Below, one piece after another: positions 41,613 to 58,198 of a DNA stretch of 64,000 bases. The notes under the pieces are model-generated. The model saw nothing but the letters and a program-made list of their open reading frames with translations. It did not search any database and was not told the DNA's origin. This DNA is from an uncultured Acidobacteriota bacterium (GTDB taxonomy: Bacteria; Acidobacteriota; Terriglobia; Terriglobales; Acidobacteriaceae). The stretch covers positions 4,847-68,846 of the forward strand of contig CAVREP010000016.1 in NCBI GenBank assembly GCA_963720155.1, read 5' to 3'. Both the position numbers and the translations under genes were made by a program. How positions within the stretch are numbered: position 1 is the first letter of the stretch; each line of letters starts with the position of its first letter.

Positions 41613-41660
41613 TTGACCGGAGGGTCTTTTCGAGGTATAATTAAACTAGTTTAAACTAGT
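41613..41660 (+). promoter_or_regulatory. consensus sigma70 promoter plus tandem operator-like repeats of the phd-vapC module
   Basis: TTGACC (41613-41618), 17-nt spacer, TATAAT (41636-41641). Then TTAAACTAGT twice (41641-41660), each containing the palindrome ACTAGT. GGAGGG lies before ATG 41676. Confidence 0.65.
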
Positions 41661-41675
41661 CTTATTGGAGGGAAC

Positions 41676-41921: not shown

Positions 41922-42334
41922 CCGGGATAGTGGTTGATGCCTCTGTAGCGCTCGCCTGGTGTTTCTCTGACGAGGCGAGCGAATACGCAGACGGTGTGCT
42001 TGTGGCGCTGGAAGGCCGGACGGTGATCGTTCCATCCATATGGGCGCTGGAAGTTACAAATGCGGTGTTGGTGGCCGAGCGCCGCAAGCGTGTGAAGCAG
42101 CCGGATGTGCGGCGCTTTGTGGAATTGCTGGGAGGCCTGACAATTATCGAGCATGCACAAACGGTCGCAGACACCGTGAACAATGTTCTTCCACTGGCGC
42201 GGGAATACAATCTTTCGGCATACGACGCGGCATATCTTGATGTGGCAGTGCGACAAGGAGCGCCGATGGCCACCCTTGACAGTGGATTAGAGAAAGCCGG
42301 GCGCTCGGCTGGCATCAAGATTTTCAAGGCTTGA
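41918..42334 (+). CDS. vapC: PIN-domain toxin VapC
   Basis: 138 aa. IVVDASVALAW, WALEVTNAV, YDAAYLDVA acidic PIN residues. Overlaps the antitoxin stop. Confidence 0.85.
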   Translation: MTGIVVDASVALAWCFSDEASEYADGVLVALEGRTVIVPSIWALEVTNAVLVAERRKRVKQPDVRRFVELLGGLTIIEHAQTVADTVNNVLPLAREYNLSAYDAAYLDVAVRQGAPMATLDSGLEKAGRSAGIKIFKA

Positions 42335-42507
42335 TTTGTCTTCTAAGGTCACCAGCATATCGACATCTCCAAAACCAGTAGCAAGAGGATCGTGACGCTT
42401 GGCTACCCCTTGGTTCCGGCTACTTTGCCGTTGTCTAAAACCCACGTTTTAGAGACGGTCGATCCAAGGGAAATTTTCCTTACGTGGAAATGGCAGTGTT
42501 GTGGATG

Positions 42508-42753
42508 TTACAACGTTCGCAAACATCGCAGATCCACAATGTTGAGCTCGATGCTGCGTGGAATCTTCCCTTCCCTCTTGAACTTTTGGAAACCGGGCTT
42601 GCTCATCAGCACAATCGAGTCATACCCTTTTCGTAACGCTGCGCGACGTAGTTTTGCGTCGAGCGCGAATCGTTCCCTAACGGTTATCTCTTGATGGGAC
42701 TCGACACGGCCGATGAGCTTGGCAATGAAATCAAACGGATAGTAATGAGGCAC
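42508..42753 (-). CDS. hypothetical protein
   Basis: 81-aa ORF with a GTG start. No motif recognised. Low-GC surroundings. Confidence 0.3.
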   Translation of the reverse strand: MPHYYPFDFIAKLIGRVESHQEITVRERFALDAKLRRAALRKGYDSIVLMSKPGFQKFKREGKIPRSIELNIVDLRCLRTL

Positions 42754-42959
42754 GCGATGAAAAAAGAACCTTAAAAATTACTTGACGGAAACCGCATTAA
42801 AGAAGAGGGGCCAGTGCCCCCTTGTGGATCCCCCGCAGGGGAGGAAATTGCGGGCGCCTTTGCGGATGATGCGACGGGTTTTGATGGGAAAAGAAAAGTA
42901 ATTTGGGGGGCGGCGGGAGCCTCAGCTACGCGAAGCTGAAAGCGATCGTGAGACTCCTC

Positions 42960-43247
42960 TCAGAGCGACTTGCCCTTGAAGGTGTTCTTGACGGGCTGCG
43001 GCCGGGGCTCGCGCGACAACTCGATTTTGTGTTTCTGCAGGATCGGCTTCAGAAGCGCGCCGAACTTTTGCGCGTGCTGCTCGGATTCCCACACCTCGAA
43101 CACCTTGAAGTCGGCGCCCGCGCCAGAGGCCACGTGATACGTCATGCCCTCGGGCGGCCAGATTCCCTGATCCTTCATATCCTTCATGACACTGTCGTAC
43201 TGTAAATCGGCGCCTGCCTTGGGCTCGAAAAGCAGCGTGATCGCCAT
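42960..43247 (-). CDS. small hypothetical protein (possible dimeric alpha/beta-barrel fold)
   Basis: ATG 43247 is preceded by AAGGGGAG. 95 aa: MAITLLFEPKAG..FKVFEVWESEQHAQKF. Confidence 0.5.
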   Translation of the reverse strand: MAITLLFEPKAGADLQYDSVMKDMKDQGIWPPEGMTYHVASGAGADFKVFEVWESEQHAQKFGALLKPILQKHKIELSREPRPQPVKNTFKGKSL

Positions 43248-43390
43248 GTTTTCTCCCCTTGTGCTCACCCGGAATTTCCGTTTTGACTTCCCAGCCGGGC
43301 CGCAATGTACATTTAAGGGAATCAGAATACCATTTCTATGTGTATCCAGGGGGATTTGTAAAGGGTGGGAGGCTCCCCTCCCCGTCCATC

Positions 43391-43568
43391 CCGCCCCGTC
43401 TCGGTTTGCGAGACAAACCTTTATAGAAGCGCGTCTTCACGCGCGGGCGGGACACTCTTTTAAACAGCGCGCGTACACCCGTCCCGCTTTTGCGGGACAA
43501 GTCTCTGTAAAATACGCGCCTGCGCGCGTGGGGGGCCGGGGGACGAAGTGGAGCCCGAGACGGGACGG
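43391..43568. repeat. intergenic block of three related hairpin-bearing units closed by a 14-bp long-range helix
   Basis: Units contain GTCTCG-GTTTG-CGAGAC, GTCCCGC-TTTT-GCGGGAC and GCGCG..CGCGC palindromes. CCGCCCCGTCTCGG (43391-43404) is complementary to CCGAGACGGGACGG (43555-43568) with one mismatch. Confidence 0.4.
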
Positions 43569-43570
43569 TC

Positions 43571-43846
43571 CTATCGGAATACGAGGTTTGGCGCGGGAAA
43601 ATGAATGTTCAGCTTGTAGCAAATGAAGAGAACCAGGATCGCGCCCAGTGTTGAAAAAATGAGGCCGGCGGGATGATATCGTTCGTTTGCCGGGCGCGAA
43701 AACATGTGGGCAACGCCGCCGCCGATGATCGATCCGATGATGCCGAGCACGATCGTCCAGAAGATCGTCATATGCACGTGCATCACCGATTTCGCGATAA
43801 CCCCCGAGATCAGCCCAATAAAAATATACCAGATTAAGTGAAACAT
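43571..43846 (-). CDS. GlsB/YeaQ/YmgE-family small membrane protein
   Basis: ATG 43846 behind GGAGGG. MFHLIWYIFIGLISGVIAK..IVLGIIGSIIGGG. The longer track ORF (to 44014) has no support upstream. Confidence 0.8.
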   Translation of the reverse strand: MFHLIWYIFIGLISGVIAKSVMHVHMTIFWTIVLGIIGSIIGGGVAHMFSRPANERYHPAGLIFSTLGAILVLFICYKLNIHFPAPNLVFR

Positions 43847-44349
43847 ACTCTTCCCTCCAGCGTTTGCCTTCAGAACGTCGTCGAGTATAACCCAGGGTTT
43901 GGCAATTAAGCAGCCTTTCCCATGGCATTGATCGGCTTTCCAAATTTTTATTGAACGTTTAGCTGCCGGATGTCGGCAGCAAAACTCGCCAGCCTCATCG
44001 GCGCAGAATTTCAATTTCGCTCAGCTTTTACAGCATAGCCATAACCGCATCAAGATAATCTGAGAAAGATGCATGCAGGTCGTGGAAGCGATATTGAACG
44101 GGGTGTCGGGCATAGATCTTGTGAGTTCTTCCAATGACATTTCCCCGGAACTGCTGCAGGGCGGTAGCCGCCCTGCCCAATTTCCTCCACTACGCCGTTT
44201 CTCCGTTTGGCGTGTTTGTCACTGAATTGCCACCCGCAATCCTTTCGCCGACCATTCTCGCGCGTGAGCAAAACTTATCAGCAAAAACTCATCATCTTTC
44301 AGCATGATTGATTAGATCGAATCTCACACGTTTTGGGCTTGGAGGAACT

Positions 44350-44421
44350 ATGTTAGGTTACGGCTTGCTGGGAACACTTGTTGTAATAGCGCTGGTTGTT
44401 TTGATCGTCCGCGGTCTGTGA
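44350..44421 (+). CDS. 23-aa hydrophobic peptide (not in the ORF track)
   Basis: GGAGGA lies 5 nt before the ATG. Sequence MLGYGLLGTLVVIALVVLIVRGL followed by a stop. Confidence 0.4.
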   Translation: MLGYGLLGTLVVIALVVLIVRGL

Positions 44422-44549
44422 ACCCAAAGCTCTGGGCGCGTACAGCAACCGCGTCCAGCGGTACTCCCCTACTTCACACTGCCGTCGTCCCGGAAGACTC
44501 CGGTCAATAGACCACCCGAAGAACGGGCCCAAGCCCTCTCGTCTCAGAT

Positions 44550-44720
44550 TTATTTCAACGAACTAGGTTTCTGTTGGCATTCGTGCGCGTCGAACTGAGC
44601 CTTAACTTCCCGCGCAGCTTGTTCGTAGCCTTTCGATGACGATTTGAAGGACGCGGAGCACGCCTCGCAAACACAAAACATGGGATTCTCGTTGACGACC
44701 CTCAGTTTGCGCTCCGGCAT
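44550..44720 (-). CDS. small Cys-containing hypothetical protein
   Basis: ATG 44720 behind GGGAGGGGAG. MPERKLRVVNENPMFCVCEACSASF.. Confidence 0.45.
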   Translation of the reverse strand: MPERKLRVVNENPMFCVCEACSASFKSSSKGYEQAAREVKAQFDAHECQQKPSSLK

Positions 44721-44753
44721 ATGACGCTCCCCTCCCTCCCCCATTTTCCAAAG

Positions 44754-44960
44754 CTAACGCTGCCGCAGTCGGCGAATCCTGGGAGAGAAATTAACCTCCA
44801 GACACTTCGAGCAAGGGCACCTGAACGCCGTATCGTTCGAAAAGACAATGTGGCCGCAGCTTTCGCAAATCAGCTGCCCGTTGGGGAGAACTTTCATCGC
44901 CCTGAATCCCTTGCCCAAAACACAATAGGGACAGCAGGTTTCCTTCGGTGTCCTCTTCAC
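44754..44960 (-). CDS. small zinc-ribbon-like protein
   Basis: 68 aa with CCPYC..CESCGH..CPCSKC cysteine pairs. GTG start behind GAGG. Confidence 0.5.
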   Translation of the reverse strand: MKRTPKETCCPYCVLGKGFRAMKVLPNGQLICESCGHIVFSNDTAFRCPCSKCLEVNFSPRIRRLRQR

Positions 44961-45028
44961 CTCAAACCTCAGATTCGCTAGCGAGGGTACGACTCGTGCG
45001 CCGGCGACGGCAATACAGTGAATTGAGT

Positions 45029-45056
45029 AATTATGCGTTGTACATAGATATGCGGA
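45029..45056. repeat. RIT1 inverted repeat, left
   Basis: AATTATGCGTTGTACATAGATATGCGGA. The reverse complement of 53510-53537 matches with 3 mismatches. Confidence 0.8.
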
Positions 45057-45182
45057 CTCTTATCAACACAGGCGTTGTATCTTTAGGCTCTGCCTGTTCG
45101 GCAAGGCACGAGGGTTTCCGATTTACTCTGCATAACGTAGCCTTTCTCGGGCCACCAAGCGTGGGGCAGAGAGAGGACCTAC

Positions 45183-46415
45183 ATGGACATTTCTAAAGTT
45201 GTCGTACGGTCGCACCGTATGAGGGCAGGCAGCGTGGCTCGGCATCTTATAATAAGGGCTTTGCCACCCAGCTTGCGGAAGTCGGTTACACATCCTTAAC
45301 GATCAACGATTTCCTGATCTCGGCCATCCATTTCGGCGCGTGGCTGGAGGTCAGCGGCCAGTCTTTAGACGAGGTTGGCAAGCTGACCGTTTTTGCATTT
45401 GGAGCGCATCGCTGCAAGTGTCCTGGGGGCCGCAGCCTGAAACGTGTTTCGCGACGTTTCACGGCACGTGTTCAGCGCTTCGTTGACTACCTGCAGCAAC
45501 AGGGAGCTATCAGCCCACTCACGAATTCAACAAGTGAGACTTCTGCGCCACTGAGCACGTTCCGCAACTGGCTTTTGAGTCATCGGGGATTGGCTATCTG
45601 TACGGTGAATCGTCACGAACGCCTTATCACGCAAATGCTACCCGCCCTTGGGGCGGACGCGGCCAACTATAACGCAGCTTCTGTAAGGAAGGTCATCCTA
45701 GACCGGATCCGTGGCTGTCGGCCCGATGGTGGTTTCTCTTCGTGTTTATTTGCGGTTTCTGGCGACCAGTGGTGCATGCCAGGCCGGTCTCGACCATGCA
45801 CTTCCGCCCGTGGCAGAGTGGAGACTCTCGTCATTACCGCGTTACCTCGATGCCGCGCAGGCAACTCGTCTCATTGACTCCTGTGGGAAGAACGGACCGC
45901 AAGGACTGCGGGACCGCGCCATCGTGCTATTGCTGATTCGGCTTGGACTACGAGCAGGAGACATTGCCGGTATGCGTCCAGGCGATATCAGCTGGCAGGA
46001 TGCAACTTTGCTGGTACGAGGCAAGGGACGCAGGGACGTCCGTCTACCTTTGCCACAGGACGCAGGGGACGCAGTTCTGGAGTACATGGAACGGGCACGA
46101 CCTCAGGTTGCTATTGACCGTGTGTTTCTGTGCGTAAACGCCCCATTCCGCCCGCTGGGATTTGGTTCTAACGTCTCGTGCATCGTTCGCGCTGCACTGC
46201 AACGGGCCGGGATCAAAAATCCCCCAACCTTTGGTGCGAACCTCCTCCGCCACACGGCAGCAACAACGATGCTTCGTGCGGGCTCGACTCTGTATGAGAT
46301 AGGTACGGTCCTCCGGCATAAGTCTCCCAACACGACAGCGCATTATGCCAAGGTGGACGTTGCGACACTTCAGCAAATCGCACAACCCTGGCCGAATGGG
46401 GAGGGAACATGTTGA
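45183..46415 (+). pseudogene. ritA: tyrosine recombinase RitA, two frameshifts
   Basis: MDISKVVVRS (ATG 45183), then a shift near 45210 to ..GFATQLAEVGYTSLTINDFL..RKVILDRIRGC, then a shift near 45715-45735 to MVVSLRVYLRFL..LLRHTAATTMLRAGSTLYEIGTVLRHKSPNTTAHYAKV. Colinear with the intact 412-aa RitA2. Confidence 0.8.
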
Positions 46416-47323
46416 GCGACGCTGTCACTCGCCACATCGAACTGCATCGCAGCATGGGATTCAAGTTCAGAGACGAGGCGTATATGCTCCGAGGTTTTGC
46501 CGCTTTCGCAGAAAGTCGGTCTGAACTTTTCGTTCGCACGGAAACAGTTCTGGAGTGGGCGGCCAGTGCGCCTTCGGTCAGTCGACGCCATGATCGCCTG
46601 CGCACCATCCGTCGTTTTGCATATGCCTTGATGACGGAAGACGACCGTCATCAGGTGCCACCGGACGATGCTTTTGGCCGCGCACAGAAGCGGCATCGAA
46701 AATGCCATATTTTTGTTCAGGACGAAATCAACCGCCTTCTGCGAGCCGCCGCACAACTGAAACCGAAGGGATCGATACGGCCAGCTACGTACGTCGCCTT
46801 GCTTTCGCTCATCGCGGCCACCGGACTCCGCGTTTCTGAAGCCTTAAAACTACAGGTGTCCGATATCACTGAAGACGGGTTGCTCATCCGTAAAACAAAA
46901 TTCCAAAAGAGCCGTTTGGTTCCTCTGCATGCGAGTGCGCATCAGGGATTGCGGCAGTATCTCGTCGCACGCGGGAGAATCAGGATAACCACACCGAATG
47001 TCTTCGTTTCCCAGCGCGGCGCTGCACTCCCGTACGATACGGTCAGCAAGACTTTCCTCAACTTGGCGCGATCAGAAGGCCTGCGCGAAGGTCCGGGGCA
47101 TGGCGGTTGTCATATTCACGATATTCGCCATACATTCGCCGTCAGGTCGCTCGAACAGTGTTCGAGCGACCGCAGAGCTGTCGCGCAACATATGGCCGCG
47201 CTGAGCACCTATCTAGGTCACGCTCATGTCTCCGATACGTATTGGTATCTGCAGGTCACGCCGAAGCTTCTGGGCGACATAGCACTGGCCGCTGAGATTC
47301 TACACAGGGGAGGTGAGCAATGA
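46409..47323 (+). CDS. ritB: tyrosine recombinase RitB
   Basis: 304 aa. LRVSEAL, HDIRHTFA, LGHAHVSDTYWYL. Overlaps the ritA1 stop, and its own stop overlaps the ritC1 ATG (ATGA). Confidence 0.85.
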   Translation: MLSDAVTRHIELHRSMGFKFRDEAYMLRGFAAFAESRSELFVRTETVLEWAASAPSVSRRHDRLRTIRRFAYALMTEDDRHQVPPDDAFGRAQKRHRKCHIFVQDEINRLLRAAAQLKPKGSIRPATYVALLSLIAATGLRVSEALKLQVSDITEDGLLIRKTKFQKSRLVPLHASAHQGLRQYLVARGRIRITTPNVFVSQRGAALPYDTVSKTFLNLARSEGLREGPGHGGCHIHDIRHTFAVRSLEQCSSDRRAVAQHMAALSTYLGHAHVSDTYWYLQVTPKLLGDIALAAEILHRGGEQ

Positions 47324-48099
47324 ATCCCCTCGGTCCGCACCTGACAGTATTCCTGCGCGAATACCTTCCAAGACAACGTGAAATGAGCGCACAAACGTCC
47401 GACACGTATGCGTATGCCTTCCAACTGCTGGTGTGTTTCGCTGCCAAGCGCCTGAAGACGACTCCTTCTAAGCTCTCCATCGAGCAACTCGATGCGACAC
47501 TCGTGTTGGCTTTCCTCGAAAGCCTCGAAAAAGAGCGGGGAAACTGCGCCAAAACACGCAACTCACGACTAGCCGCTGTCAAAACGTTCTTCCGTTTCCT
47601 GGAATACCGGTTACCGTCCTGCCTTGATCAGGCCCGACGAGTTCGCGCTATCCCGGTGAAGAAAACCGACGAGGTCATCGTCGGTTTTCTCAATCGCGAG
47701 GAGATCCAGGCTTTGTTGGATGCTCCTGATCCAAAATCCCGATACGGGTTGCGGGACCGCGCCATGCTTTATCTTGCCTATGCTTGCGGACTGCGTGTCT
47801 CGGAACTCGTCTGTCTACACATGGATGATTTAGCCTTCCATCCTCAACCGACGATTCATGTGATGGGAAAGGGCCGACGCGAGCGGGTGCTGCCGCTGTG
47901 GAAAGAGACAGCCATAGCGCTTCGGGATTGGGTTAAGGTGCGAGGCGAGACAAAAAGTGGAGCTATATTCCTGAACGCTGGTCACGAGGCTATGACCCGG
48001 TCGGGATTCGAATACATTCTGGCCAAGCACGTTCAGACTGCCAGCGTCAGGCAACCTTCGTTGACCAGAAAGCGAGTATCACCTCACATCATGCGACAC
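47320..48099 (+). pseudogene. ritC: tyrosine recombinase RitC, 5' part (interrupted by RIT2)
   Basis: Sensible up to ..VMGKGRRERVLPLWKET..KRVSPHIMRH (codon CAC 48097-48099). The following 45 codons are RIT2 end sequence. Confidence 0.85.
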
Positions 48100-48122
48100 T
48101 ATCTACCCTTCCTGACTATGTC
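48100..48122. repeat. RIT2 inverted repeat (ritC-proximal end)
   Basis: TATCTACCCTTCCTGACTATGTC, the exact reverse complement of 53176-53198. Confidence 0.9.
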
Positions 48123-48223
48123 GAGTGATATGGAGTGGTCTGGCGATCGTTCAATAATTGCAGACCCCAACGCAAATCGAGTCGATCAATCACCCGACAT
48201 AGTTTTCCCCGTTTTTCTCTGCT

Positions 48224-48644
48224 CTACAAACTATTGAGGAAGCCAAGCAGTTGGTCTCCCGGTTGGTAGCGCCCCGGTCTGCCGTGCGACGGTGATGTTT
48301 TGGCAAGGGCCCGCTCCTTCATTGCGAGTGTGGCTTCGAGATAAATCTGCGTGGTCTCCACCGACTCATGTCCGAGCCACAATGCAATAACGGAACGATC
48401 CACGCCCGCTGGTAGAAGGTCCATCGCCATCGTGTGCCTCAGGCGATGAACGGTGACCCGCTTTTCCTTCAACGACGGGCAGACTTTGGATGCTGTCGTG
48501 CGATGCTTGGTCAGCAGGTACTGCACACCGTGGACACTGAGACGTTCACCCTGAGCGCTGGGAAAGAGCAAGTCGTCGCCACCACGTTGCGGTTGTCGAA
48601 GCCAGGCTTTCAATACAGCGAGTGTGGATTGGGCAAGAGGTGTG
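48224..48644 (-). pseudogene. ritC: RitC2, 3' part
   Basis: ..CTPLAQSTLAVLKAWLRQ..KRVTVHRLRHTMAMDLLPAGVDRSVIALWLGHESVETTQIYL.. Continuous with 50318-50895 once 48645-50317 is removed. Confidence 0.85.
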
Positions 48645-49382
48645 GTGCAGCGATGCTAGCTGCCATTCTAGCGGGTGCAAGACCCGCCCGTGGAACTTGC
48701 CCAGTTGCCACGGTAGCAATATCCGGCGGTGAAACGGGAGACCAATTCACCGGAAGCCCGGAAGTAAAAGCCCCCGTTGGCCGAGCAGAGATGCTTGGTC
48801 GGATCCGCCAGGGGGGCAAACAACTCGACAGGTCGTAACGCAAGTGAACCGTAGTTAAGCTCCGAAATAGCCCCCCACGGGAAGCGGATTGTGGGAAATG
48901 ATGGAAGTGCCGAGTCGCTCACGCTATGACGAAGGCCAACGTCGACGGCGAAGGAACTGGGTACATGCAACCGTCGAACTTCCTGGAGTCGCAGAGGACG
49001 ACATGTTGAGACAGAATGGTCAGCGAAAGCACGGAACCACTCCCGGGTCGCCTAGGCGCACCCGCACAGCGAAGGCATCGCATATAAACCGCCCTGCGGC
49101 GAAACTGCGTTGTGCCCGAGAGTGGGACGGATGTGGCCGAATAAGTGTTGATGGACTGGGACAACATAACCCAGACCGGAGCGAGGGCCACTGGGGTAGA
49201 AGAGGGAACTCTTCGCATGGTGGTGTGTCGTTAGCCCCTCCTTCCCGACTCTGAGCGGGAGTTCAAGGAGTAGGCCCGATGCACGAAGGACAGAGGCAAA
49301 GCAAGCGAACCGCTGAGCATGCCGGGTGCAGGCTTAACCAGCGGGACGTGCGCGAAGGCGCTGTCTGACAGGCCAGCCTTTC

Positions 49383-49414
49383 AGCCGTACTGGGGTAAAC
49401 CCACTGTACGGAAT
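49383..49414 (+). ncRNA. group II intron domain V (outer copy)
   Basis: AGCCGUAC-UGGG-GUAAA-CCCA-CU-GUACGG. AGC triad at the 5' base and a 2-nt 3' bulge. Confidence 0.75.
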
Positions 49415-49440
49415 GATAGGGGGGACGGTGGAAACGTCGG

Positions 49441-50277
49441 GTGCAGCGATGCTAGTTGGCGTTCTAGCTGGTGAGAGTCCAGCCAGGGGAACTTGCCCAG
49501 TTGCCCCTGTAGTGATATCCGGCGGCGGAGCGGGTGACCAATCCGACCGGAAGCCCGGAAGTAAACGTCCACGTCGGCTGGGTGAAAACCTAGTCAGCTC
49601 CGACAGGTGGGCTAGCAAATCAGCAGGTTGTAGCGAAAGTGAACTGTAGGTAAACCTCGAAAACCACCGCCCCACGAGAATCGGAGGGTGGGGAGCCTCG
49701 GAAGTGCCGAGACGTCCGACGTAGTCGAAGGCCAGTGTTGTCGGTGAAGGAACTGGGTGCATGCAGCCGACAAACTTCCCGTGGTCGCAGGGGACGACAT
49801 GTTGATAGAGGACAGCCAACGAAAGCACGGAACCACTCGTGGGGCGCCTAGGCGCACCCGCACAGCGAAGGCATCGCCTATAAACCGCAAGCCGGCGAAA
49901 TGGCGGTGTACCCACGAGTGGGACGCATGAGGCCGATTAAGTGAGGATGGTCCGGGACAACATAACCCGGACCGGAGCGAGGGCCTCTGGGGTAGAGGAG
50001 ATTACTCCTCGCATGGCGGTGCATCTTTTAGCCATCCTTCCCGACACAGTGCGGGAGTTAAGGAGCATGGCCCGGATGCGCGAAGGACGGATGCAAAGCA
50101 GGCGTTGCGCTGGGTATGCCGGGTGCAGGCTTAACCAGTGGAGCGAGTGCCAAGGCGCTGTCTGATAGGCCAGCCTTCCAGCCGGACTGGGGAAAACCCG
50201 CTGTCCGGAATGATAGGGAGGACGATGGAAACATCGGCATCATTCGAAGCCCGATTAGCGCCATCGTCCTACCCGAC
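49441..50277 (+). mobile_element. ORF-less group II intron (inner, 837 nt) inserted in domain VI of the outer intron
   Basis: 5' GUGCAGCG. EBS1 CCGACGU and EBS2 CCACCG are perfectly complementary to the upstream flank. Domain V at 50180. Domain VI 50216-50228/50261-50274 with bulged A 50271. 3' ..ACCCGAC. Confidence 0.85.
50180..50211 (+). ncRNA. group II intron domain V (inner copy)
   Basis: AGCCGGAC-UGGG-GAAAA-CCCG-CU-GUCCGG. Compensatory change relative to the outer copy. Confidence 0.75.
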
Positions 50278-50317
50278 CATCATTCGAAGCCCGCTACGCG
50301 CCACTGTCCTACCCGAC

Positions 50318-50895
50318 CAGCGTTCTTTGCGGCCCTTGCCGATCACGCGCAGGTGAGCCCCAGTCCCAACGATGAGGTCCGCGCGTTTGAGACCGGTCAT
50401 TTCCGATAAGCGTAGGCCCGTCTGTACCGCCACGAGCAGAAAGGCGTGATCGCGCCGACCAGACCAGGTGAACTGATCCGGAGCGGCCAGCAAGGCATCG
50501 ACTTCGGGGCGAGTGAGGAACTGGACCAGGGTACGGGTGAAACGCTTGCTGGGGATGGCGAGCACACGCTGGATCTGTGCGGAATGGGCAGGCGACTCGA
50601 AAGCCGCGTATCGAAAGAAGGAGTGAATCGCTGTCAGGCGCAGATTACGACTGCGAATACTTACGCCTCGGTGCTTTTCCAGTTCATCCAAAAAAGCCAC
50701 GATCAGGGGGGCATCAATCTCCTCGAAGGTCAGGCGTGATGGCGGTTTGCGAAGCCGCTGCTGAACGAACTTCAGGAACTGTCGGAAGCAGTCGCGATAG
50801 GAACTGATGGTGTGTGGGCTCGCCTGACGCTGCTGCATCAAGCGCTGGGTAAAGAAACGCTGCAATAGGGGAGCCAAGCTGATGGGAGTGATCAT
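50318..50895 (-). pseudogene. ritC: RitC2, 5' part
   Basis: MITPISLAPLLQRFFTQRLMQQR..LRVIGKGRKER. ATG 50895 overlaps the ritB2 stop (ATGA). The frame runs into intron sequence after 50318. Confidence 0.85.
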
Positions 50896-51836
50896 GTCCG
50901 GTCCTCCCAGCGATGCTCGAGCCGGCGCATGGCTTCCCGCATCAACTCCGGAGAGCCGCTTAAATACCACTGCGTGTCCGCGACATGGACATGACCGAGG
51001 TAGGCGCACAAGATCGGCAGGAGGCGCTCTGGATCTTGGTTAGCCCGATACCACGTTACCAGCGTGTTGGTTGCGAATCGGTGTCTCATGTCATGCAGAC
51101 GTGGCCCGTGATGGTCGGATATGCCGCGCAGACCGATCTGCCGGGACAAGGCATAGAACGTTCTATGAATCTCTCCGCCATCCAAACGATTGCCCCAGTT
51201 GGAAACGAACCGGTAGGAGGAGACCTCTCGTCCCGCCCAATGACGTTGCCGTCGTGCGAGGTAGTCGGCAAGTACTTTGCAAGTCGATGCGTGCAAAGGC
51301 ACGAGTCGAGACTTGCCAAACTTGCCGCTGCGGATGGTCAACACCGCCGCCTTAAGATCCACGTCATGAAGCTCGAGACTGCGCGCTTCACCAAGGCGTA
51401 GGCCAGAGACACTCAGGAGTCCAAACAGACAATAGTAAGTCCAAGGTCGCAGTTTGCCGAGTTCACAACGACAGGGCATGTCGAGAGTAGCGCGCAGTAA
51501 ACGCCGAATTTCATCGTCCGAGTACAGGTAGGGCCGCGCTCGCCTCGGTCGAAATGGCAACAAGCCTTGGTGGGGAATCTGCGTTCGCGGATCGGTCGCA
51601 CTACGATGGCGGGCAAATCCACGAACGAAACTCAGCCGTTGCGCCCAGTGCGCGGGTTGGACGTTTATCGGTTGTTGAGCCCAAGCGAGCGCCAAGGCTG
51701 TGGTGATGTAGGAAGTGCGGTGGCGCTCCATGAAGGTGACGAAATCGAGCAATCCCTTGCCTGCATGCTGCAGCTTGAACCCCAAGCTACGGCGCAGACT
51801 CAGGTATTCTTGAACGGCCTGTCGAAGCGTGTTCAT
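50892..51836 (-). CDS. ritB: tyrosine recombinase RitB2
   Basis: MNTLRQAVQEYL from ATG 51836 (ATGA overlap with the ritA2 stop). LRLGEA, HDMRHRFA, LGHVHVADTQWYL. Confidence 0.85.
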   Translation of the reverse strand: MNTLRQAVQEYLSLRRSLGFKLQHAGKGLLDFVTFMERHRTSYITTALALAWAQQPINVQPAHWAQRLSFVRGFARHRSATDPRTQIPHQGLLPFRPRRARPYLYSDDEIRRLLRATLDMPCRCELGKLRPWTYYCLFGLLSVSGLRLGEARSLELHDVDLKAAVLTIRSGKFGKSRLVPLHASTCKVLADYLARRQRHWAGREVSSYRFVSNWGNRLDGGEIHRTFYALSRQIGLRGISDHHGPRLHDMRHRFATNTLVTWYRANQDPERLLPILCAYLGHVHVADTQWYLSGSPELMREAMRRLEHRWEDRT

Positions 51837-53071
51837 CGCACACCTCCCGGCCACGGCAAAGCCAGCGTACGCAATGCCTTGATGTCAACCTTGGTGTAGA
51901 TCTTGGTGGTCTGTGGATGGCGATGGCCGAGCAACTCGCCAATCTCGCTCAGCGAAGCACCTTGGCGCAACATCTCGGTGGCCAATCCATGGCGAAACTG
52001 GTGAGCCCCTGAGGTTGTAGCCTGGATGCCGGCACGCTGGAGCGCGTGCCGAACGATAGAGGCAACGCCACTCACCCCGCGAAAAGCGCAAATCGGGGCT
52101 CTGGCTCGTAAGAATACGCGGCGGCGGGTGCTATGGGGTCGTCCTCGCCGCAGGTAGGCAGCGATGGCTTTCCCGACCTCTGTGGGCAAGGGCAGTCGGT
52201 TGCGCGGACCACTCTTGCCGCGCACATTTACTTGTCCCAGGTTCCAGTCAATGTCACCGAGTTCGAGAGATACCACTTCCCCTGCCCGCAATCCCAATCG
52301 CGCTAGCATGAGCAAGATGGCATAGTCTCGCCGCCCAACTGCAGCGCGACGATCGATACTGGCCAGGAGTTGGCGTACGTGGTCCGCGGAAATCGCTCGG
52401 GGGATCGATGTCATCGACCAGTTGGCAACGATAGGAACGGCGGGGGCCAGATCAAGCGTGACCTCCCCGAGATATCGCGCGTACTGCAGGAAGGAGCGCA
52501 ATGCGGTGGTCATGAGCTTCGCCGTCTTCCTGTGCAGTCGTGGCGCTTGGCGCGGCACGAACCTTACAACATCGCTTGCACGCAGACGCGAGAGCGTGAC
52601 TCGTGCGGAACCGAAACTGTCTTTGAGAAAACTGCGAATGAACGGAACGTAGTTGACGATTGTCGGGCGGGCCAGTGCGCGTACTTCCAGTAAATATTTC
52701 CCGAATGCTTGGGCACAATGCTCAGCCGGAGTCGGTTGGCATGCCAATTTCTTTTCGCGGGGGATCACGCCCTCGCCGCGCAAAAAGCCGATGAGATGCT
52801 TGAGGGCAGCGGCGTCCCCCCGGCCAAGTCGTACGTGTCGAGCGCGATATCGCAGATACCGTGCCGGATGATCGGAGCAGAGGCTGCGCAGTCCAACCCC
52901 GTTCTGCTGAAGCCATCGGCTAAAACATGCAGCGAGCAAAACCTGTCGATGAATCGATGCCAAACTGTATCCCTGCTTACTCACCGATTCTGCAAACGAG
53001 CCGATTTGTGCTGCGAGCGGCCCTTCCGGCGCTCGCGATAGAACCACTTGGTTGTTGATGATGCACTTCAT
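51833..53071 (-). CDS. ritA: tyrosine recombinase RitA2
   Basis: 412 aa. LRAGEV, FRHGLATEML, LGHRHPQTTKIYTKV. Confidence 0.85.
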   Translation of the reverse strand: MKCIINNQVVLSRAPEGPLAAQIGSFAESVSKQGYSLASIHRQVLLAACFSRWLQQNGVGLRSLCSDHPARYLRYRARHVRLGRGDAAALKHLIGFLRGEGVIPREKKLACQPTPAEHCAQAFGKYLLEVRALARPTIVNYVPFIRSFLKDSFGSARVTLSRLRASDVVRFVPRQAPRLHRKTAKLMTTALRSFLQYARYLGEVTLDLAPAVPIVANWSMTSIPRAISADHVRQLLASIDRRAAVGRRDYAILLMLARLGLRAGEVVSLELGDIDWNLGQVNVRGKSGPRNRLPLPTEVGKAIAAYLRRGRPHSTRRRVFLRARAPICAFRGVSGVASIVRHALQRAGIQATTSGAHQFRHGLATEMLRQGASLSEIGELLGHRHPQTTKIYTKVDIKALRTLALPWPGGVR

Positions 53072-53175
53072 GGTGGACTCCTTCCCCGACTCTGCGGGCT
53101 AGTACAAGGAGCTCAGAATATGTCTATACCGCCTCAAGTAGAAGCCCTGGAAATCGGGCCCTCGCAGATTTACAA

Positions 53176-53198
53176 GACATAGTCAGGAAGGGTAGATA
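53176..53198. repeat. RIT2 inverted repeat (ritA-proximal end)
   Basis: GACATAGTCAGGAAGGGTAGATA. Confidence 0.9.
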
Positions 53199-53232
53199 GT
53201 GGCGCCTATGTCTCTGGGTACATAGCAGGCAC

Positions 53233-53445
53233 TCATGCGCGATGCACACTTTGCAGGCAACTGGAGATATTCGGAAGGTTGCTCTCTGGCTTGGGCACGC
53301 CAGTCTTCAAAGCACGGAGGTCTATCTCCGAGCCGATCCCGCCGAAAAGCTGGAGACCATAGCGTCATTGGTTCCCCCTGCTTTACGACGCGGTCACTTT
53401 CGGCCCCCGGATAAGCTACTCGCCATGCTTCGGCCGGAAAAGTGA
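53233..53445 (+). pseudogene. ritC: RitC1, displaced 3' part
   Basis: In phase with 47320-48099. SCAMHTLQATGDIRKVALWLGHASLQSTEVYLRADP.. completes the HxxR..GH..Y region. 780 + 213 nt = 331 codons. Confidence 0.8.
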
Positions 53446-53509
53446 ATATCGTTATGCGCCGTCCAAGGTATAGAGAGCGGCTGATTTTACAGGCTTCCTT
53501 CTGAGTCAC

Positions 53510-53537
53510 TCCGCATATCTATGGACGGCGCATAATT
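53510..53537. repeat. RIT1 inverted repeat, right
   Basis: TCCGCATATCTATGGACGGCGCATAATT. Confidence 0.8.
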
Positions 53538-54220
53538 GCGCTTTTGCGCTGCACCGCAAAGCGCAAGGGGTTCGAGGGGCTGTACGGTCTGGTCCGGGAT
53601 CGACGATCAGCACAGGCAGGAAATCCAGAACTACGCCATCACGGGGACGACGCTGACGGCGTTCGCGCCGCAGCGCACGCAAAGGATTTCTCTAGCGGAC
53701 CTTGATATTTCAGCGACGACCAAGGCCAACGACGACCCGGAGTGGACTTCCGTGTGCCGGGTGGCGAAGGGCAGTAAATTCGTGTTTCCACGGCACGTAT
53801 CCCTTCGATCAGTCTCCCTACAACCGATCACCGGCACAATTAGCGGAACACCGCCACTTCTCCGGTGAGCGCAATGGCGATAACGGGATGGTCCACCGCC
53901 TGGCGGCCCCCACTGCTACCTAATAATCCCTTCCCCAGAAGGCTGGCACCCTCTCGGCCCTTTCTTCATTTGTATCGTAAGATCGTGCAATCCGGCTGCA
54001 TCCAGATGGCAATTGATCCCTTGTTTTCCGCCGCCGCTCACGACCGCCAGATTACGACCCAGTTTTCACGACGCATCTCGATCTAGAAAGACCTTCATGA
54101 ATAATGCAGGAATGTGAGCATCACGCCGCTATTTGAGACCTAGAAAGGTCGGGAGATTCGCACGCCATCCCTCCGGCAGCGTGTGCAATCTGCCAAGAGC
54201 GGGTCTTTCGCGGGTGGCGG

Positions 54221-55573
54221 TCAAGCGTCTCCTCTTAGGGCCGCGGGGACTTGCATAGGGACAAGAAAGTTGCTGGCGAGAAGATAGGCGAACAGGTGTC
54301 CGAGAGGCGGCGCCCGACGCAGCTGGCTGGCAGAAACCCATCCATTCGTCTCACTCCATTCCCAACCCGTAGTGGAAACACTCTTCAGCCCTTCCCGCAG
54401 ATCCGCGGCGGTCATCGGATAAACGTAGATCCGAACATTCTGGGCGAAGAGACGTGCGAGGGCCTCCAGAAGTCTGCCTTCGAGATTGCCGTAAACGTCT
54501 TCAAACGCTCGAATGACCAGGGAAAGACCTGCGACGAAGCGCACAGGCGCCTGCGTATGGCGGTTTACGAGAGCTGTCATGTGGTAGAGCTCGGGTTTAC
54601 GAAAAAGCAGCACGTCGCCGCCAGCGTCGAGAAGAGAATTAATGCGACGAAGCAAGTCGGGAATCTCCGGGGCTGGTTCGTTCGACGCGAACGGAGCGAC
54701 TGTCAGGCAAAAAAAGCCAGCGGGCGCCGACTTTGTTTCGCCAAGCTCCTTCCGAAGCTCCTGAACGGCCGAAGCCAACAATCGCAGGTGAACTTGCGAG
54801 TGCGCTGGGTCCGTGTGGCCAAAATATCCCGGTGCAAGCACGACGGCTTTCTTGTAGAGAACCTCGGTCGGGGGAACCGTGGAGCCCTTGGCGGGGAAAA
54901 GTACCGCCTCTGCGAGTCCCGCACGAACCAAGTGGACTCGCAGGGCACGGCGATCCCAACTCTCGAATGCTGGCCCGCGAAGATCCACGTAGTCGATCTC
55001 GATTCGCTCCGCGACGACGTCTTGTGCCAGGCCTTCCAGAAATGATTCCTTGAGTTGCACTTCATAGAACGCGGCATAGATGAGGTTGACGCCCAGAATA
55101 CCGATGGCTTGCTGCTGGAGGACATTGGAAGGATCGCGCATATTGATGTGCAGCAGGATGTCGTTGGGAGGACCGCCGGGCTGCAACTGAAACCGGAGAC
55201 CGATCCAGCCATGTGAGTCGTTGGTTCCGGCGAAGTTACGGGCGGAGACGGTATCAACAAAGCAGAAGAAGCGAGTTTGTGGCCCACGGGTTTTGCTTAA
55301 TTGCGTGAGAAGCTGGGCCCATTCGTTGTCCAGCATCGCCTCGAGTCGCTGTTTGGATACGTAGCGCGATCCGGAGCCGTAGAGATCATCGCTGACTTCC
55401 TTGTCGTAAGCGGAAATGGTTTTGGCCACAGTGCCGGAGGCCCCTCCCACTAGGAGGAACCAGCGCGCGACTTCCTGTCCGGCGCCGATTTCGGCGAAAG
55501 AACCGAAGGTGGATGTATCGAGATTCAGGGTGAGCGCTTTGTGGTGAGTGTCGAGTTTTTCAGTAGAAGGCAT
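54221..55573 (-). CDS. conserved-looking hypothetical protein, family not recognised
   Basis: 450-aa ORF with coherent codon usage. N-terminal FGSFAEIGAGQEVARWFLLVGGASGTVAKTISAYDKEVSDDLYG. No TM segment or signal peptide. Confidence 0.7.
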   Translation of the reverse strand: MPSTEKLDTHHKALTLNLDTSTFGSFAEIGAGQEVARWFLLVGGASGTVAKTISAYDKEVSDDLYGSGSRYVSKQRLEAMLDNEWAQLLTQLSKTRGPQTRFFCFVDTVSARNFAGTNDSHGWIGLRFQLQPGGPPNDILLHINMRDPSNVLQQQAIGILGVNLIYAAFYEVQLKESFLEGLAQDVVAERIEIDYVDLRGPAFESWDRRALRVHLVRAGLAEAVLFPAKGSTVPPTEVLYKKAVVLAPGYFGHTDPAHSQVHLRLLASAVQELRKELGETKSAPAGFFCLTVAPFASNEPAPEIPDLLRRINSLLDAGGDVLLFRKPELYHMTALVNRHTQAPVRFVAGLSLVIRAFEDVYGNLEGRLLEALARLFAQNVRIYVYPMTAADLREGLKSVSTTGWEWSETNGWVSASQLRRAPPLGHLFAYLLASNFLVPMQVPAALRGDA

Positions 55574-55958
55574 AGTCAGGCTCCAGTCGGGCGAACTTCT
55601 AAGAGGCGCGAAGCGTCCGGACGAGCTAGCGAAACTCGGCGCGCGAGGGCGATTCTACCCGAGATTTCGTTTTTGATTTCGAAAATGGTAAAGATTCTAC
55701 AACCGTTTTGCCCTCCTGCACGTTGATTGAACCATTTCCTTCTGGGCCGCCGCAAAGGGTCAGCCTCCAGCAAGATCCAGAGCCGGCCAGAAGTCCCGTT
55801 GTGGGAAGTTGGAAGCTCCACTTGGAGCTGCTGCCAATTGAGGGCGGATGACGGCTAACCGGTAGTAATCCGCCTGGACGACAGCTGGTTTTACAAACGG
55901 CTGCATGGGGATCATTGGCGAAATCAGGTGTTGCGCTGCCTGAGAATTTGCTGGTGAA

Positions 55959-56177
55959 ATGGCGAAGTCACGCCGGCTGCGGATTCAATGTGTCAACCAT
56001 GTGTTTCCTCTGACACTTACGGTCGACCAGGGGAAAGTTGCCGGGCCAAATGGTGCAGCTGCCAAGCTTGGAATTCCACGGTCGACGCTTGATTTGAAAA
56101 TCAAGCAGCTCAGTATAAAGAAAACGGCGTCCGGTAAAGTTCGCAGGCAACTCCCAGAATTGGAACAAAGCCCATGA
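55959..56177 (+). CDS. small protein with Fis/NtrC-type HTH_8 motif (may be a gene remnant)
   Basis: GPNGAAAKLGIPRSTLDLKIKQLSIKK. Its stop overlaps the ATG of the next ORF (ATGA). Confidence 0.35.
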   Translation: MAKSRRLRIQCVNHVFPLTLTVDQGKVAGPNGAAAKLGIPRSTLDLKIKQLSIKKTASGKVRRQLPELEQSP

Positions 56178-56404
56178 CAACGCTCCAGGAATTCAGATGT
56201 GAAGTCTGTGGACTCGTTACCACCAACCCCATCCACTGGTTCGTGATTCGATCTGGAGATTCCGATCTCACCGTCTACCGGTGGAACTCTGAAACAGCCA
56301 ACGCGCCGGGAGCCCGGCATTATTGCGGTGAGGCTCATGCCGAGGTGTACATCAGCCGCTGGTTTGACTCGGTGTGCGCGCCGCCGAAGCCAAGCTTTAC
56401 CTAG
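56174..56404 (+). CDS. small CxxC hypothetical protein
   Basis: 76 aa: MTTLQEFRCEVCGLVTTNPIHWF..HYCGEAHAEVY. Confidence 0.45.
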   Translation: MTTLQEFRCEVCGLVTTNPIHWFVIRSGDSDLTVYRWNSETANAPGARHYCGEAHAEVYISRWFDSVCAPPKPSFT

Positions 56405-56548
56405 CGCCTTGACGGTGCGTCATTACTGGAATGCGGGATTGGCTTTCGGTATGAGCACCGGGTTAGCGGCTTGTGGCCGGCACTCTTTGGAATGCGTAAA
56501 TCGCCTGCAACGAACCCATGGCCTTGTGGGGTCTATGGCAGCGCGGGA

Positions 56549-58198
56549 TTATGGTTTCAGAAGTGACTCCCCGTAACCAACAGGAATGGCGAAGTTCGAG
56601 CCGCCGAACTCACGCACCATGGCAAAATTAATTCCGATAACTTTGCCCTCATCGTTGAAAAGCGGGCCACCCGAGCCGCCCGAGGTGGTTTGGGCGTCAT
56701 AGACGATCTTGTCAGGCAGTACGTCGCCAATGTGCCCCTGAGTGGTGATGGGTCTGATCAGGTGACGACGGGCCAGTTCCTCCATCACCTGCTTTGAGTC
56801 ACCTTTGGACGCGGTGGCGATGGACTGGAGAGTCTCGGTGCCCGCTCGAGCCAGAATTGCGTCCAGAGCAGTGGGATATCCAAGCAGCACGACGGGACCG
56901 CCGCTGACTGCCGAACGGCGGCCATCGGCAAGGGCTATCTGTTTGATTCCGAGTTGTGAAATATCTGCTTTTAGGACTGCAACGTCAGCGGTAGTGGAAA
57001 TCCTTTCGGTATTGATGGCAATGCCGTGCGAGACGCCCGGGAAATACGCAGTCATCTCCACGGTCACTGGCTCAAGCCCTTGATCGAGCATTTCCTTCAA
57101 ATCATCGTTCTGCCACCACGGTTCGGCCACGTGATGATTGGTGAGGATTTGTCCAGTAGTGGAGGCAAGAAATCCCGTACCAAAAGCATCCAAGTGTACT
57201 TCCGGTCCGCTCCCAGTGAGGCTCAAGAGCGGGTTGTCATGTTCGTCAGTCTTCGGGGCGCCACTGCTGGTCATCTCAGCGTAGTGCAATCTCAATCCCG
57301 TGGTGTGCTCTCGGAAGGCGAGCACAATGTGGATAAGGCAGACGCTGGGCTCGTAAGATTGGATGATCGTCTGCGCCACCTTTCCCTCACTCTCGAGCTT
57401 TTGAAGACGGGTTTCTACTGCCGTTAACTGATTTTGCAAAGCAGACGTGTTCTCGTCTTTGCTGGCCGCAATCTGCGACCGCAGGTCTTCGCTCCTTTTC
57501 TGAAGTTGCACTTTTTGTGGATCGCTCGCCAGGGATGGACTGTGTTCGCCACCCTCAAGACCCCGGCGCGAGCTCTCCATCAACCGTTGTTCGGTTAGCA
57601 TGCCGGTTTGCAATCGAGTGATCGCAGCGTAGACCCGGGTATTCTGTTGTTGGTTGTGGCGATATAAGAGGAAGAAGACCAGCGCAGCGGCCACAAGCAC
57701 GGCAATTGCTGTCCGCCCGCCCACCCGGAGCGTCCGCCGTTCCTCGTTGACCGCGGTCACCACCTGCTGGGTAGCGTTTCGATTCTCCTCGGCAAGGCGC
57801 AACCGGTCGCGAAATTCGTCCGCAACGGATTTATCCCGCAGTTGGGAACGCAACCGCGATAACAATTCGTGGGAGTCGAAGGGCAGTGACAGTACATCGT
57901 CGGCACCAAGATCAAGGCCCCGAGTACGCTCGGCGGATCCTCCCGGCGAGAGCATCACAACGCGAATATGGTGAGTCTGCTCGGAACCCTTGATTTCGGA
58001 GAGAAGGTCACAGCAATCGAGCTGGGGCGGATCCGCACCCAGGACCACTACGTCGGGATCGAAGGCGTCGACCGCTTTCATTCCTTGCTGGTAGTCGCTC
58101 GAGACTACATATCCCGCATCGCGGAGTACGGCGACGATTTGCTCCCGGAGAGCATCATCGGATTCCACCACTAGCAATTTCCCAGCTCTGGAGTTCAT
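56549..58198 (-). CDS. atypical receiver domain - coiled coil/TM - trypsin-like (S1) serine protease fusion
   Basis: ATG 58198 (MNSRAGKLLVVESDD). REC-like N-terminus with SLPF in place of the usual KPF. TM segment TAIAVLVAAALVFFLLY. Protease triad context LTNHHV, DVAVLK, GGSGGPLF. No PDZ seen. Confidence 0.8.
   Translation of the reverse strand: MNSRAGKLLVVESDDALREQIVAVLRDAGYVVSSDYQQGMKAVDAFDPDVVVLGADPPQLDCCDLLSEIKGSEQTHHIRVVMLSPGGSAERTRGLDLGADDVLSLPFDSHELLSRLRSQLRDKSVADEFRDRLRLAEENRNATQQVVTAVNEERRTLRVGGRTAIAVLVAAALVFFLLYRHNQQQNTRVYAAITRLQTGMLTEQRLMESSRRGLEGGEHSPSLASDPQKVQLQKRSEDLRSQIAASKDENTSALQNQLTAVETRLQKLESEGKVAQTIIQSYEPSVCLIHIVLAFREHTTGLRLHYAEMTSSGAPKTDEHDNPLLSLTGSGPEVHLDAFGTGFLASTTGQILTNHHVAEPWWQNDDLKEMLDQGLEPVTVEMTAYFPGVSHGIAINTERISTTADVAVLKADISQLGIKQIALADGRRSAVSGGPVVLLGYPTALDAILARAGTETLQSIATASKGDSKQVMEELARRHLIRPITTQGHIGDVLPDKIVYDAQTTSGGSGGPLFNDEGKVIGINFAMVREFGGSNFAIPVGYGESLLKP

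Follow-up and report, generated by a model that had tools for sequence, protein, structure and literature searches.

A recombinase-in-trio element nested in another within a probable IS66 relic of an uncultured Acidobacteriota bacterium, with a group II twintron inside and signs of targeted insertion

The DNA analysed here, referred to as the window, is a stretch of 64,000 nucleotides (nt) from an uncultured Acidobacteriota bacterium of the Acidobacteriaceae (assembly GCA_963720155.1, contig CAVREP010000016.1, positions 4,847 to 68,846 of the forward strand). It contains a stack of mobile elements built around two recombinase-in-trio (RIT) elements, RIT1 and RIT2. The nest is made of five layers: a probable relic of the tnpB gene of an IS66 element holds RIT1, RIT1 holds RIT2, RIT2 holds an outer group II intron, and this intron holds an inner group II intron (Table 1). 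An initial annotation of the same DNA had recognised the four levels from RIT1 inwards, and stepwise deletion restores the reading frames at the coordinates that it gave. In-silico removal of 49441-50277, then 48645-50317 and then 48100-53232 leaves one intron, a ritC2 gene of 332 amino acids (aa) and a continuous ritC1 gene of 330 aa, with ritC1 resuming in phase at 53233. The outer inverted repeat pair (45029-45056 / 53510-53537) is 28 nt long, with 25 of 28 positions complementary. The inner pair (48093-48122 / 53176-53205) is 30 nt long at 97%, and the perfect 23-nt repeats reported for RIT2 lie inside it.

All six recombinase open reading frames (ORFs) match PF00589 (Phage_integrase), RH..Y motifs are present in the restored recombinase sequences, and ritA-ritB-ritC are arranged in this order on one strand in both trios. 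Best matches to the two trios of Cupriavidus necator plasmid pHG1 confirm this order, each ORF grouping with its own subfamily (A 38-68%, B 34-80% and C 35-86% identity); full-length identities between subfamilies are 30% or lower, with one short local match as the exception. RIT2 is 68, 80 and 86% identical (A, B and C) to one of the pHG1 trios, and RIT1 and RIT2 are 44% (ritA), 36% (ritB) and 40% (ritC) identical to each other. NCBIfam has no Rit-specific model, and only its generic Xer-type models were matched, under their cutoffs. The description of the trios as ATGA-coupled holds for three junctions (B1/C1, A2/B2 and B2/C2); the A1/B1 overlap is ATGTTGA (7 nt) or TTGA. Likewise, the RITs of C. 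metallidurans CH34 and C. necator pHG1 (Van Houdt 2009/2012) carry ritA-ritB-ritC on one strand with ATGA-type overlaps, products of about 410, 310 and 330 aa, and RH..Y motifs. An additional core-binding domain at the N-terminus of RitA and an additional helix at the C-terminus of RitC have been reported (PMC8138268); in RitA2 the SAM-like domain covers residues 121-198 only, and about 120 residues N-terminal of it are unassigned. A RIT hallmark that is matched here is a palindrome next to terminal inverted repeats some 28-34 bp long, and RIT ends have also been described as unconvincing (PMC3414803). RIT1 and RIT2 agree with described RITs in having 28-30 bp terminal repeats plus a palindrome. 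In each RIT an inverted copy of part of the terminal repeat lies subterminally, about 60 nt inside the ritC-proximal end (48189-48203 and 53452-53465), and these copies may be accessory recombinase-binding sites. Neither trio is autonomous, since ritA1 is frameshifted twice, ritC1 is split by RIT2 and ritC2 is split by the pair of introns. The genes left intact are ritB1 alone in RIT1, and ritA2 and ritB2 in RIT2; the introns carry no reverse transcriptase.

The whole nest is found again in a second, independent contig from ENA (L001), with 1 mismatch in 8539 nt. L001 departs from the window exactly at 45029 and ends 3 nt past the RIT1 palindrome. In addition, public assemblies supply a natural uninterrupted or empty version of every layer. 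In L201, which has tnpB without RIT1, the right flank of the window (99.78% identity) is directly joined to the left flank of L001 (97.9%); the empty site reads ..GVTDMRAGFEGL.., and L201 is unbroken through ..GVTDMRAGFEGLYGLV... RIT1 without RIT2 is represented by 12 natural copies (95-98% identical), in which 48099 is joined straight to 53233, the site reading ..ATGCGACAC followed by TCATGCG; one of them encodes a RitC1 protein 100% identical to that restored in silico. Uninterrupted RitC2 homologues of 332 aa occur at 95% identity, and complete intron copies with an intact domain VI (D6) number 53, including the two of the window.

Table 1. Position, strand and supporting observation for each feature of the nest (window coordinates; L001, second contig with the nest; L201, empty tnpB site; L202, intact RIT1 in a complete IS66).
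Feature	Position	Strand	Observation
RIT1 composite, entire insertion relative to the empty IS66 tnpB site	45029..53564	+	L001 diverges at 45029; empty site of L201 and intact copy of L202 fix the right end
RIT1 left terminal inverted repeat	45029..45056	+	repeat search; kept in L202-L213
ritA1 pseudogene	45184..46415	+	5-nt insertion 45248-45252, 14-nt deletion after 45723; three reading frames used
ritB1, intact, 304 aa	46409..47323	+	
ritC1 5' part, end ..SPHIMRH	47320..48099	+	joined protein 100% identical to uninterrupted P0121
RIT2 insertion, 3460 nt of RIT2 plus 1673-nt twintron	48100..53232	-	12 natural RIT1 copies lack it
RIT2 inverted repeat, ritC2 end, TATCTACCCTTCCTGACTATGTC	48100..48122	.	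exact copies in 67 genome stretches
ritC2 3' part	48224..48644	-	
Outer group II intron, 5' 796 nt, D1 to D6 apex	48645..49440	+	RF02003 78.3 bits; EBS1 CACGCT 48920-48925; D5 49382-49415
Inner group II intron, complete, 837 nt, no ORF	49441..50277	+	RF02003 70.1 bits; EBS1 CCGACG 49716-49721; D5 50179-50212
Outer intron, last 40 nt: D6 3' strand, branch A, 3' end ..GAC	50278..50317	+	
ritC2 5' part, end ..VIGKGRKER	50318..50895	-	uninterrupted 332-aa homologues at 95%
ritB2, intact, 314 aa	50892..51836	-	80% identical to pHG1 RitB
ritA2, intact, 412 aa	51833..53071	-	68% identical to pHG1 RitA
RIT2 inverted repeat, ritA2 end	53176..53198	.	repeat search
RIT2 34-bp lox-like palindrome GTGGCGC-CTATGTC-TCTGGGT-ACATAG-CAGGCAC	53199..53232	.	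same architecture at 47/103 inverted repeat ends of relatives
ritC1 3' part, SCAMHTLQ.. to stop codon	53233..53445	+	
RIT1 right terminal inverted repeat	53510..53537	+	repeat search
RIT1 27-bp palindrome GCGCTTTTGCGCTGCACCGCAAAGCGC, part of the element	53538..53564	.	in L001 and L202, absent from the empty site L201
Relic IS66 tnpB 3' part, KGFEGLYGLVRD.. then frameshifted	53565..53870	+	no tnpC after it

Comparison of the RIT2 ends with those of their relatives reveals a common target. The exact 23-nt end of RIT2 is present in 67 genome stretches of Acidobacteriota, Alpha-, Beta- and Gammaproteobacteria, Myxococcota and others, and together with metagenome and pHG1 loci these provide 103 RIT2-family ends. 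The palindrome RTGNNNN-CTATGTC-N6-7-GACATAG-NNNNCAC precedes 47 of them, and flanking DNA precedes the other 56, which represent 50 distinct flanks. In 43 of the 50 the flank translates into ..HxxRH, with the last His codon directly abutting the element. Consistently, removal of the two inverted repeats with everything between them and the palindrome (about 3460 nt) restores HxxRH directly followed by (S/T/C)xAxHLL in 14 complete elements. The interrupted host genes are RitC-like in about 10 distinct cases and RitA-like, RitB-like or other tyrosine recombinase genes in the rest. The consensus target of the relatives is CAY-N3-NTN-MGN-CAC, with the element entering right after CAC. The codon of the last His is CAC in 43 of 43 flanks, and that of the first His is CAC in 23 and CAT in 20. 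The exclusive use of CAC at the last His hints either at recognition at the DNA level or at junction bases derived from the element. The 34 nt at 53199-53232, which the initial annotation had left unexplained, are the RIT2 palindrome. Its position varies among RIT2 copies, some of which carry it at the ritA end and others at the ritC end; a fixed orientation of the palindrome relative to the element was considered and dropped, the window copy being inverted relative to the L004 type.

RIT1 also has relatives at one site. The RIT1 copies of L001, L202, L203 and the L204 group are all located after ..DMR of IS66 tnpB, canonical RIT1 left junctions end in ..CGC, and L202 carries an intact RIT1 at the same tnpB codon of a complete IS66, whose TnpB and DDE transposase are recognised by Pfam. 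More distant RITs lie in IS66 tnpC, between ..GR and KNYLF in L007 and L009 and after ..ISNNA on pHG1, and a RIT that interrupts an IS66 gene has been reported in the CH34 genome (PMC2864759). The outer 28-nt imperfect repeats of the initial annotation stand, and its right boundary of RIT1 at 53537 does not: since the 27-bp palindrome that follows is present in L001 and L202 and missing from the empty site of L201, it belongs to the element and the boundary is 53564. The trio itself likewise stands, with ritA1 as a pseudogene. Alignment with the intact 412/413-aa RitA proteins of L202 and L203 locates two frameshifting indels in ritA1, which are not homopolymer errors and are both present in L001.

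These observations lead to a general hypothesis, for which we judge the odds to be slightly better than even, that RIT elements are site-specific homing elements. The RIT2 lineage, whose 23-bp end occurs unchanged in five phyla or more, would enter after the Arg-His codons of HxxRH in other tyrosine recombinase genes, exchange strands in a 7-nt heptamer and leave a lox-like palindrome; the RIT1 lineage would likewise home to the DMR-KGF junction of IS66 tnpB. Targeting by the RIT1 lineage is less secure than that by RIT2. Since relatives of RIT2 lie at the HxxRH codons of other recombinase genes, the stacking of the nest can hardly be due to chance. The nest had first been noted as a curiosity, a view that does not survive the site-specific targeting displayed by its relatives.

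The initial annotation had also presented the RIT-in-RIT arrangement as unknown, which was too strong. A "maze" or "complex combinations" of RIT genes on pHG1 has already been mentioned (PMC2864759, PMC3414803), and in it a RIT2-type element has entered the ritC of a different RIT directly behind ..SITPHTLRH, beside IS66, an arrangement like that of the window. It differs in that the inserted element lies between inverted ritC 5' parts, suggesting a later inversion, and in that there are no introns. Thus, nesting of one RIT in another is recurrent and already in public data, and it looks like a signature of target preference. The published descriptions of the CH34 and pHG1 RITs that were covered give no target site, whereas here two lineages are resolved as one precise insertion in the other. 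RIT target specificity is entered as not tested in the table of a 2023 review (PMC10214605). No description of the target rule was found in the RIT literature covered, which excludes the main RIT survey of Ricker et al. 2013, so that a prior description is possible.

Some relatives show other arrangements of RIT genes and ends. Two RIT2-family elements lie end to end in L042 (around 2059), so that an inverted repeat of one element is directly flanked by that of the other. In L003 (2056-6999) a RitC2-like gene (93%) directly follows Tn7/Tn5053-like tniA-tniB-tniQ genes in place of ritA and ritB. In the right flanks of L203-L213 and in L079 (pHG1; 6871-10286) the RITs are bounded on both sides by inverted 5' parts of the target (IS66 tnpB, or ritC on pHG1) instead of a 5' part, a palindrome and a 3' part; such flanks may have arisen when two inverted copies recombined and inverted the DNA between them, or when both crossover points were used.

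The junctions of RIT2 allow a scheme of integration to be proposed. A 7-nt heptamer that resembles Arg-His codons adjoins each inverted repeat, and the palindrome adds an inverted and a direct GACATAG plus a heptamer. The empty alleles show that the GCGACAC heptamer beside the target 5' part is the target's own; CAGGCAC beside the 3' part came with the element. Once joined, the ends of RIT2 would form an att-like site composed of inverted repeat, 7-nt Arg-His-like heptamer, short palindrome, heptamer and inverted repeat. Strand exchange may occur within the heptamer, one heptamer being brought along from the previous site, which would leave the 34-bp palindrome at one end. Since carriage of the heptamer resembles that of the 6-nt coupling sequence of Tn554 and SE (PMC10214605), it is possible that a circular or paired-end form exists with the joint inverted repeat-heptamer-palindrome-heptamer-inverted repeat and that two symmetry-related crossover points are used. 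Two such points would explain why the palindrome is found at the ritA end or at the ritC end.

Tn554, SE (strand-biased circularizing integrative elements) and GInt are multi-recombinase tyrosine transposons that have a defined target and carry 6-7 nt of donor flank across (PMC10214605), and the CAGGCAC of RIT2 is likewise borne by the element. They differ in that their recombinases belong to other subfamilies; RIT2 has no fourth accessory protein and has symmetrical inverted repeats plus a palindrome, and a circular RIT form has not been observed. The 34-bp site of RIT2 also resembles, in appearance only, the sites of Cre/loxP and FLP/FRT, with inverted arms of 13-14 bp around an asymmetric centre of 6-8 bp; in RIT2, unlike these systems, crossover would occur at the outer heptamers rather than in the central spacer, and three recombinases are present instead of one.

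The 1673-nt insert with group II hallmarks that was reported to split ritC2 consists of two introns. Both match RF02003, a covariance model of the conserved D1-D4 core, over the full model length on the + strand (gathering score 49). The joined outer intron (48645-49440 + 50278-50317, 836 nt) aligns end to end with the inner one (837 nt) at about 80% identity, in agreement with the second 837-nt copy described before. Since the introns are antisense to ritC2, they are not spliceable from ritC2 mRNA, and the gene is destroyed rather than merely interrupted; as predicted from their orientation, only read-through RNA of the + strand would allow their splicing. Because the model for domains V (D5) and VI gave no match, these domains were assigned by covariation among three sequences, namely the two window copies and a Bradyrhizobium fragment: 22 of 22 pairs are formed, six of them compensatory, a result equalled by 0 of 500 shuffles. 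D5 can be folded into a helix of 34 nt, bulged by 2 nt and supported by compensatory changes, and is preceded by CAGC; its triad G lies outside a standard pair and its loop is 5 nt. D6 ends in ..GUCC-UA-CCC-GAC with a bulged branch A 7-8 nt from the 3' end, and its helix is backed by four compensatory pairs.

In 51 of the 53 copies, all six nt of exon-binding site 1 (EBS1), a loop of constant position, pair with the final six nt of the intron's own 5' exon (intron-binding site 1, IBS1), compared with 64 of 997 shuffled pairings. The EBS1 of the outer intron, CACGCU, faces GGUGUG in the antisense strand of ritC2. Its nearest relatives use ..GCGUG sites and the ritC2 site occurs only here, so that this looks like an off-target insertion. 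The EBS1 of the inner intron, CCGACG, faces CGUCGG in the apical part of the outer D6. The inner copy splits the outer D6 helix into a 5' strand (49419-49431) and a 3' strand (50301-50317), a required part of the outer intron, and sequential splicing would therefore be needed, as in a twintron. A candidate EBS2, in which positions 52-61 of the outer intron are complementary to its 5' exon over 10 bp, was rejected: the loop is invariant between the copies and the inner exon has no complement to it.

The introns belong to a family of at least 120 loci detected in a metagenome scan (L081-L200), of which about 50 are complete copies of 780-840 nt without an ORF. A 2756-nt member (L154) encodes a 491-aa protein that resembles, by its sequence, a group II reverse transcriptase. 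No further twintron or tandem pair was present among the 120 intron loci, and a BLAST search against plasmids returned only a truncated Bradyrhizobium copy disrupted by IS110. The targets of the family recur by sublineage, for example ..GTACGGATCTG followed by TGCGGGGGGCGATCAG and ..GGCCGGACCA followed by TCCCATTAGCGG. Two family copies contain IS110: an IS110-family transposase lies within related ORF-less introns of unrelated sources, a soil metagenome (L177, 118-1365) and a Bradyrhizobium plasmid (L080, 2132-3222), suggesting that IS110 has a recurrent target in this intron family. Group II twintrons and nested introns occur in Euglena chloroplasts, Thermosynechococcus and Methanosarcina; there, as here, one intron sits within a catalytic domain of another and the inner intron must be removed first, and copies without an ORF need a reverse transcriptase in trans. 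Compared with these, the window differs in that both introns are ORF-less siblings, the insertion is in D6 and the pair lies antisense within a recombinase gene of a mobile element.

When the left flank of L001 is joined to the window from 53565 onwards, the reading is ..GVTGIR followed by KGFEGL, and the joined tnpB sequence matches PF05717 (TnpB_IS66) weakly (E=0.002, 18 bits, cutoff 26.6), the match spanning the join. On the left side of the window, chromosomal DNA of a sugar-utilisation cluster meets the tip of the RIT1 inverted repeat. Contig L214 is 99.89% identical to window 29935-45031 and then has unrelated genes; the breakpoint region is window 44948-45031 and L214 15080-15110, and L214 runs on into a protein kinase gene. 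The left flank was considered as a diverged start of IS66 tnpB and this was rejected, L214 showing that ordinary chromosomal sequence continues elsewhere. We read the left junction, which is not a canonical RIT1 one, as the product of a secondary rearrangement such as a deletion that stopped at the tip of the element, a mis-join being less likely; the nest itself is unaffected by the anomaly. The right flank (54221-64000, also in L201) encodes a multicopper oxidase, an outer-membrane efflux protein, a ZIP transporter, a metal-sensing repressor and an rve_3 integrase fragment, which places the composite between a sugar-utilisation cluster on the left and a metal-resistance region on the right.

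Taken together, we assign a probability of roughly 85% to the view that the locus is a stack of mobile elements produced by successive targeted insertions, none of which is now autonomous. The sequences show the anatomy, the boundaries, the empty alleles, the target rule and the base pairings; the order of insertions, the strand-exchange scheme and the mobilisation in trans are inferred from them. In the history that we propose, an IS66 copy would have decayed to a relic, and RIT1 would then have integrated between the ..DMR and KGF.. codons of tnpB, the site used by intact RIT1 relatives in complete IS66 elements. RIT2, of a different and widespread lineage closely related to a pHG1 trio, would have entered ritC1 right after the HxxRH Arg-His codons, the normal target of its lineage. 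ritC2 may then have received an ORF-less group II intron by retrotransposition into its bottom strand; the site is similar to those that this intron normally uses, and the reverse transcriptase was presumably supplied in trans. A sibling intron, diverged by about 20%, would finally have entered D6 of the outer intron to give the twintron. The two frameshifts of ritA1 may have been gained afterwards or may have been there already.

Several points weigh against this reading. All of the evidence is computational, and RIT transposition has never been observed in the laboratory (PMC10214605). At the RIT2 target, DNA recognition and the coding constraint on HxxRH are confounded, so that recognised bases are inseparable from codon conservation. 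The RIT1 copies in IS66 tnpB could represent one old insertion that spread with IS66 rather than repeated targeting. As to the introns, RF00029 (D5/D6) gave no match to them at E<=1, the 5' end is GUGCA(GCG) instead of GUGYG in both copies and in the family generally, no reverse transcriptase gene lies within the window, and neither intron copy has an ORF. The left junction misfits the model, with a breakpoint relative to L214 and only AAT (3 nt) in common. Chimeras are a risk in metagenome contigs that cross repeats, and L006 has that appearance.

Of the other explanations, the one that fares best shares the nested anatomy and differs in the last step: the composite would have been built elsewhere and would then have entered the tnpB relic as an 8.5-kb non-autonomous unit, trans-mobilised by an intact RIT1 such as that of L202. 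The right flank is 99.78% identical to the empty-site strain, yet three nested insertions and two frameshifts are already present in the composite. Between the two contigs the identity of the composite is 99.988%, while the only flank open to comparison (L001 versus L201) differs by about 2%. An intact RIT1 (96% identity) is present in the same sample as L001. However, the two contigs share no directly comparable flank. The same pattern would also result if the IS66 flanks had recombined homologously or if the "empty" strain had lost the element by precise excision, and trans-mobilisation of a RIT has never been shown. We regard such a movement as possible, on the doubtful side of even.

It is very improbable that unrelated elements piled up here at random, with no mechanistic meaning in the nesting. 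Mobile elements do often accumulate within each other, all three host genes here are dead or relics, and the outer intron occupies a ritC2 site seen nowhere else. Against this, 43 of the 50 distinct flanks of RIT2 relatives, from several phyla, place the element at one and the same codon pair, RIT1 relatives lie at the same tnpB codon, and EBS1-IBS1 pairing is obeyed by both introns, only the choice of ritC2 by the outer one looking off-target. More improbable still is an assembly artefact in which separate RIT1, RIT2 and intron loci were collapsed or mis-joined. The elements are repeated in their metagenomes, L001 breaks off 3 nt past the RIT1 palindrome in the manner of contigs that reach the edge of a repeat, and the left junction of the window is anomalous; but two contigs agree on all eight internal junctions, these junctions are all biologically precise (in-frame restoration, EBS1 pairing, inverted repeat plus palindrome) in a way that mis-joining cannot yield, and intron copies only about 80% identical are too diverged for collapse. 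The initial annotation had named such a collapse among the outcomes that would refute it; the nest passes each of the refutation tests proposed there, through the restored ORFs, the RitA/B/C grouping and the second, independent contig. Least credible is that the inner intron is a tandem duplication of the outer, as adjacency and a 40-nt direct repeat (50238-50277 / 50278-50317) might suggest: the copies diverge by about 20%, their EBS1 loops differ and are each complementary to their own upstream flank, and the inner copy is complete from GUGCA to ..GAC, its removal restoring a full outer intron with an intact D6 helix. The EBS1-IBS1 pairings rule out duplication and fix all four intron boundaries.

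All parts of the nest belong to known kinds: RIT elements, group II introns (twintrons among them) and IS66. To our knowledge, the new findings are the five-layer anatomy with its empty alleles, the antisense twintron of ORF-less siblings in a RIT and, above all, the HxxRH target rule with the att-like ends. Insertion into conserved sequences of other elements as a safe haven is familiar from the "res hunters" Tn5053/Tn402 and from IS1111/IS110 elements in attC or REP sites; the target of RIT2 differs from these in being the catalytic Arg-His coding sequence of the invader's own enzyme family.

The analysis also documents an abundant family of ORF-less group II introns (about 830 nt) in soil bacteria, including a rare twintron of one sibling in another. 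The exact boundaries, empty sites, target consensus and candidate att site suffice for the design of an integration and excision assay. If the targeting reading is true, the RIT2 lineage would act as a hyperparasite on the enzyme family to which its own recombinases belong, with RIT-in-RIT nests as the signature. Mobile elements would then disable each other by inserting at the codons that are most conserved in the recombinase of a rival.

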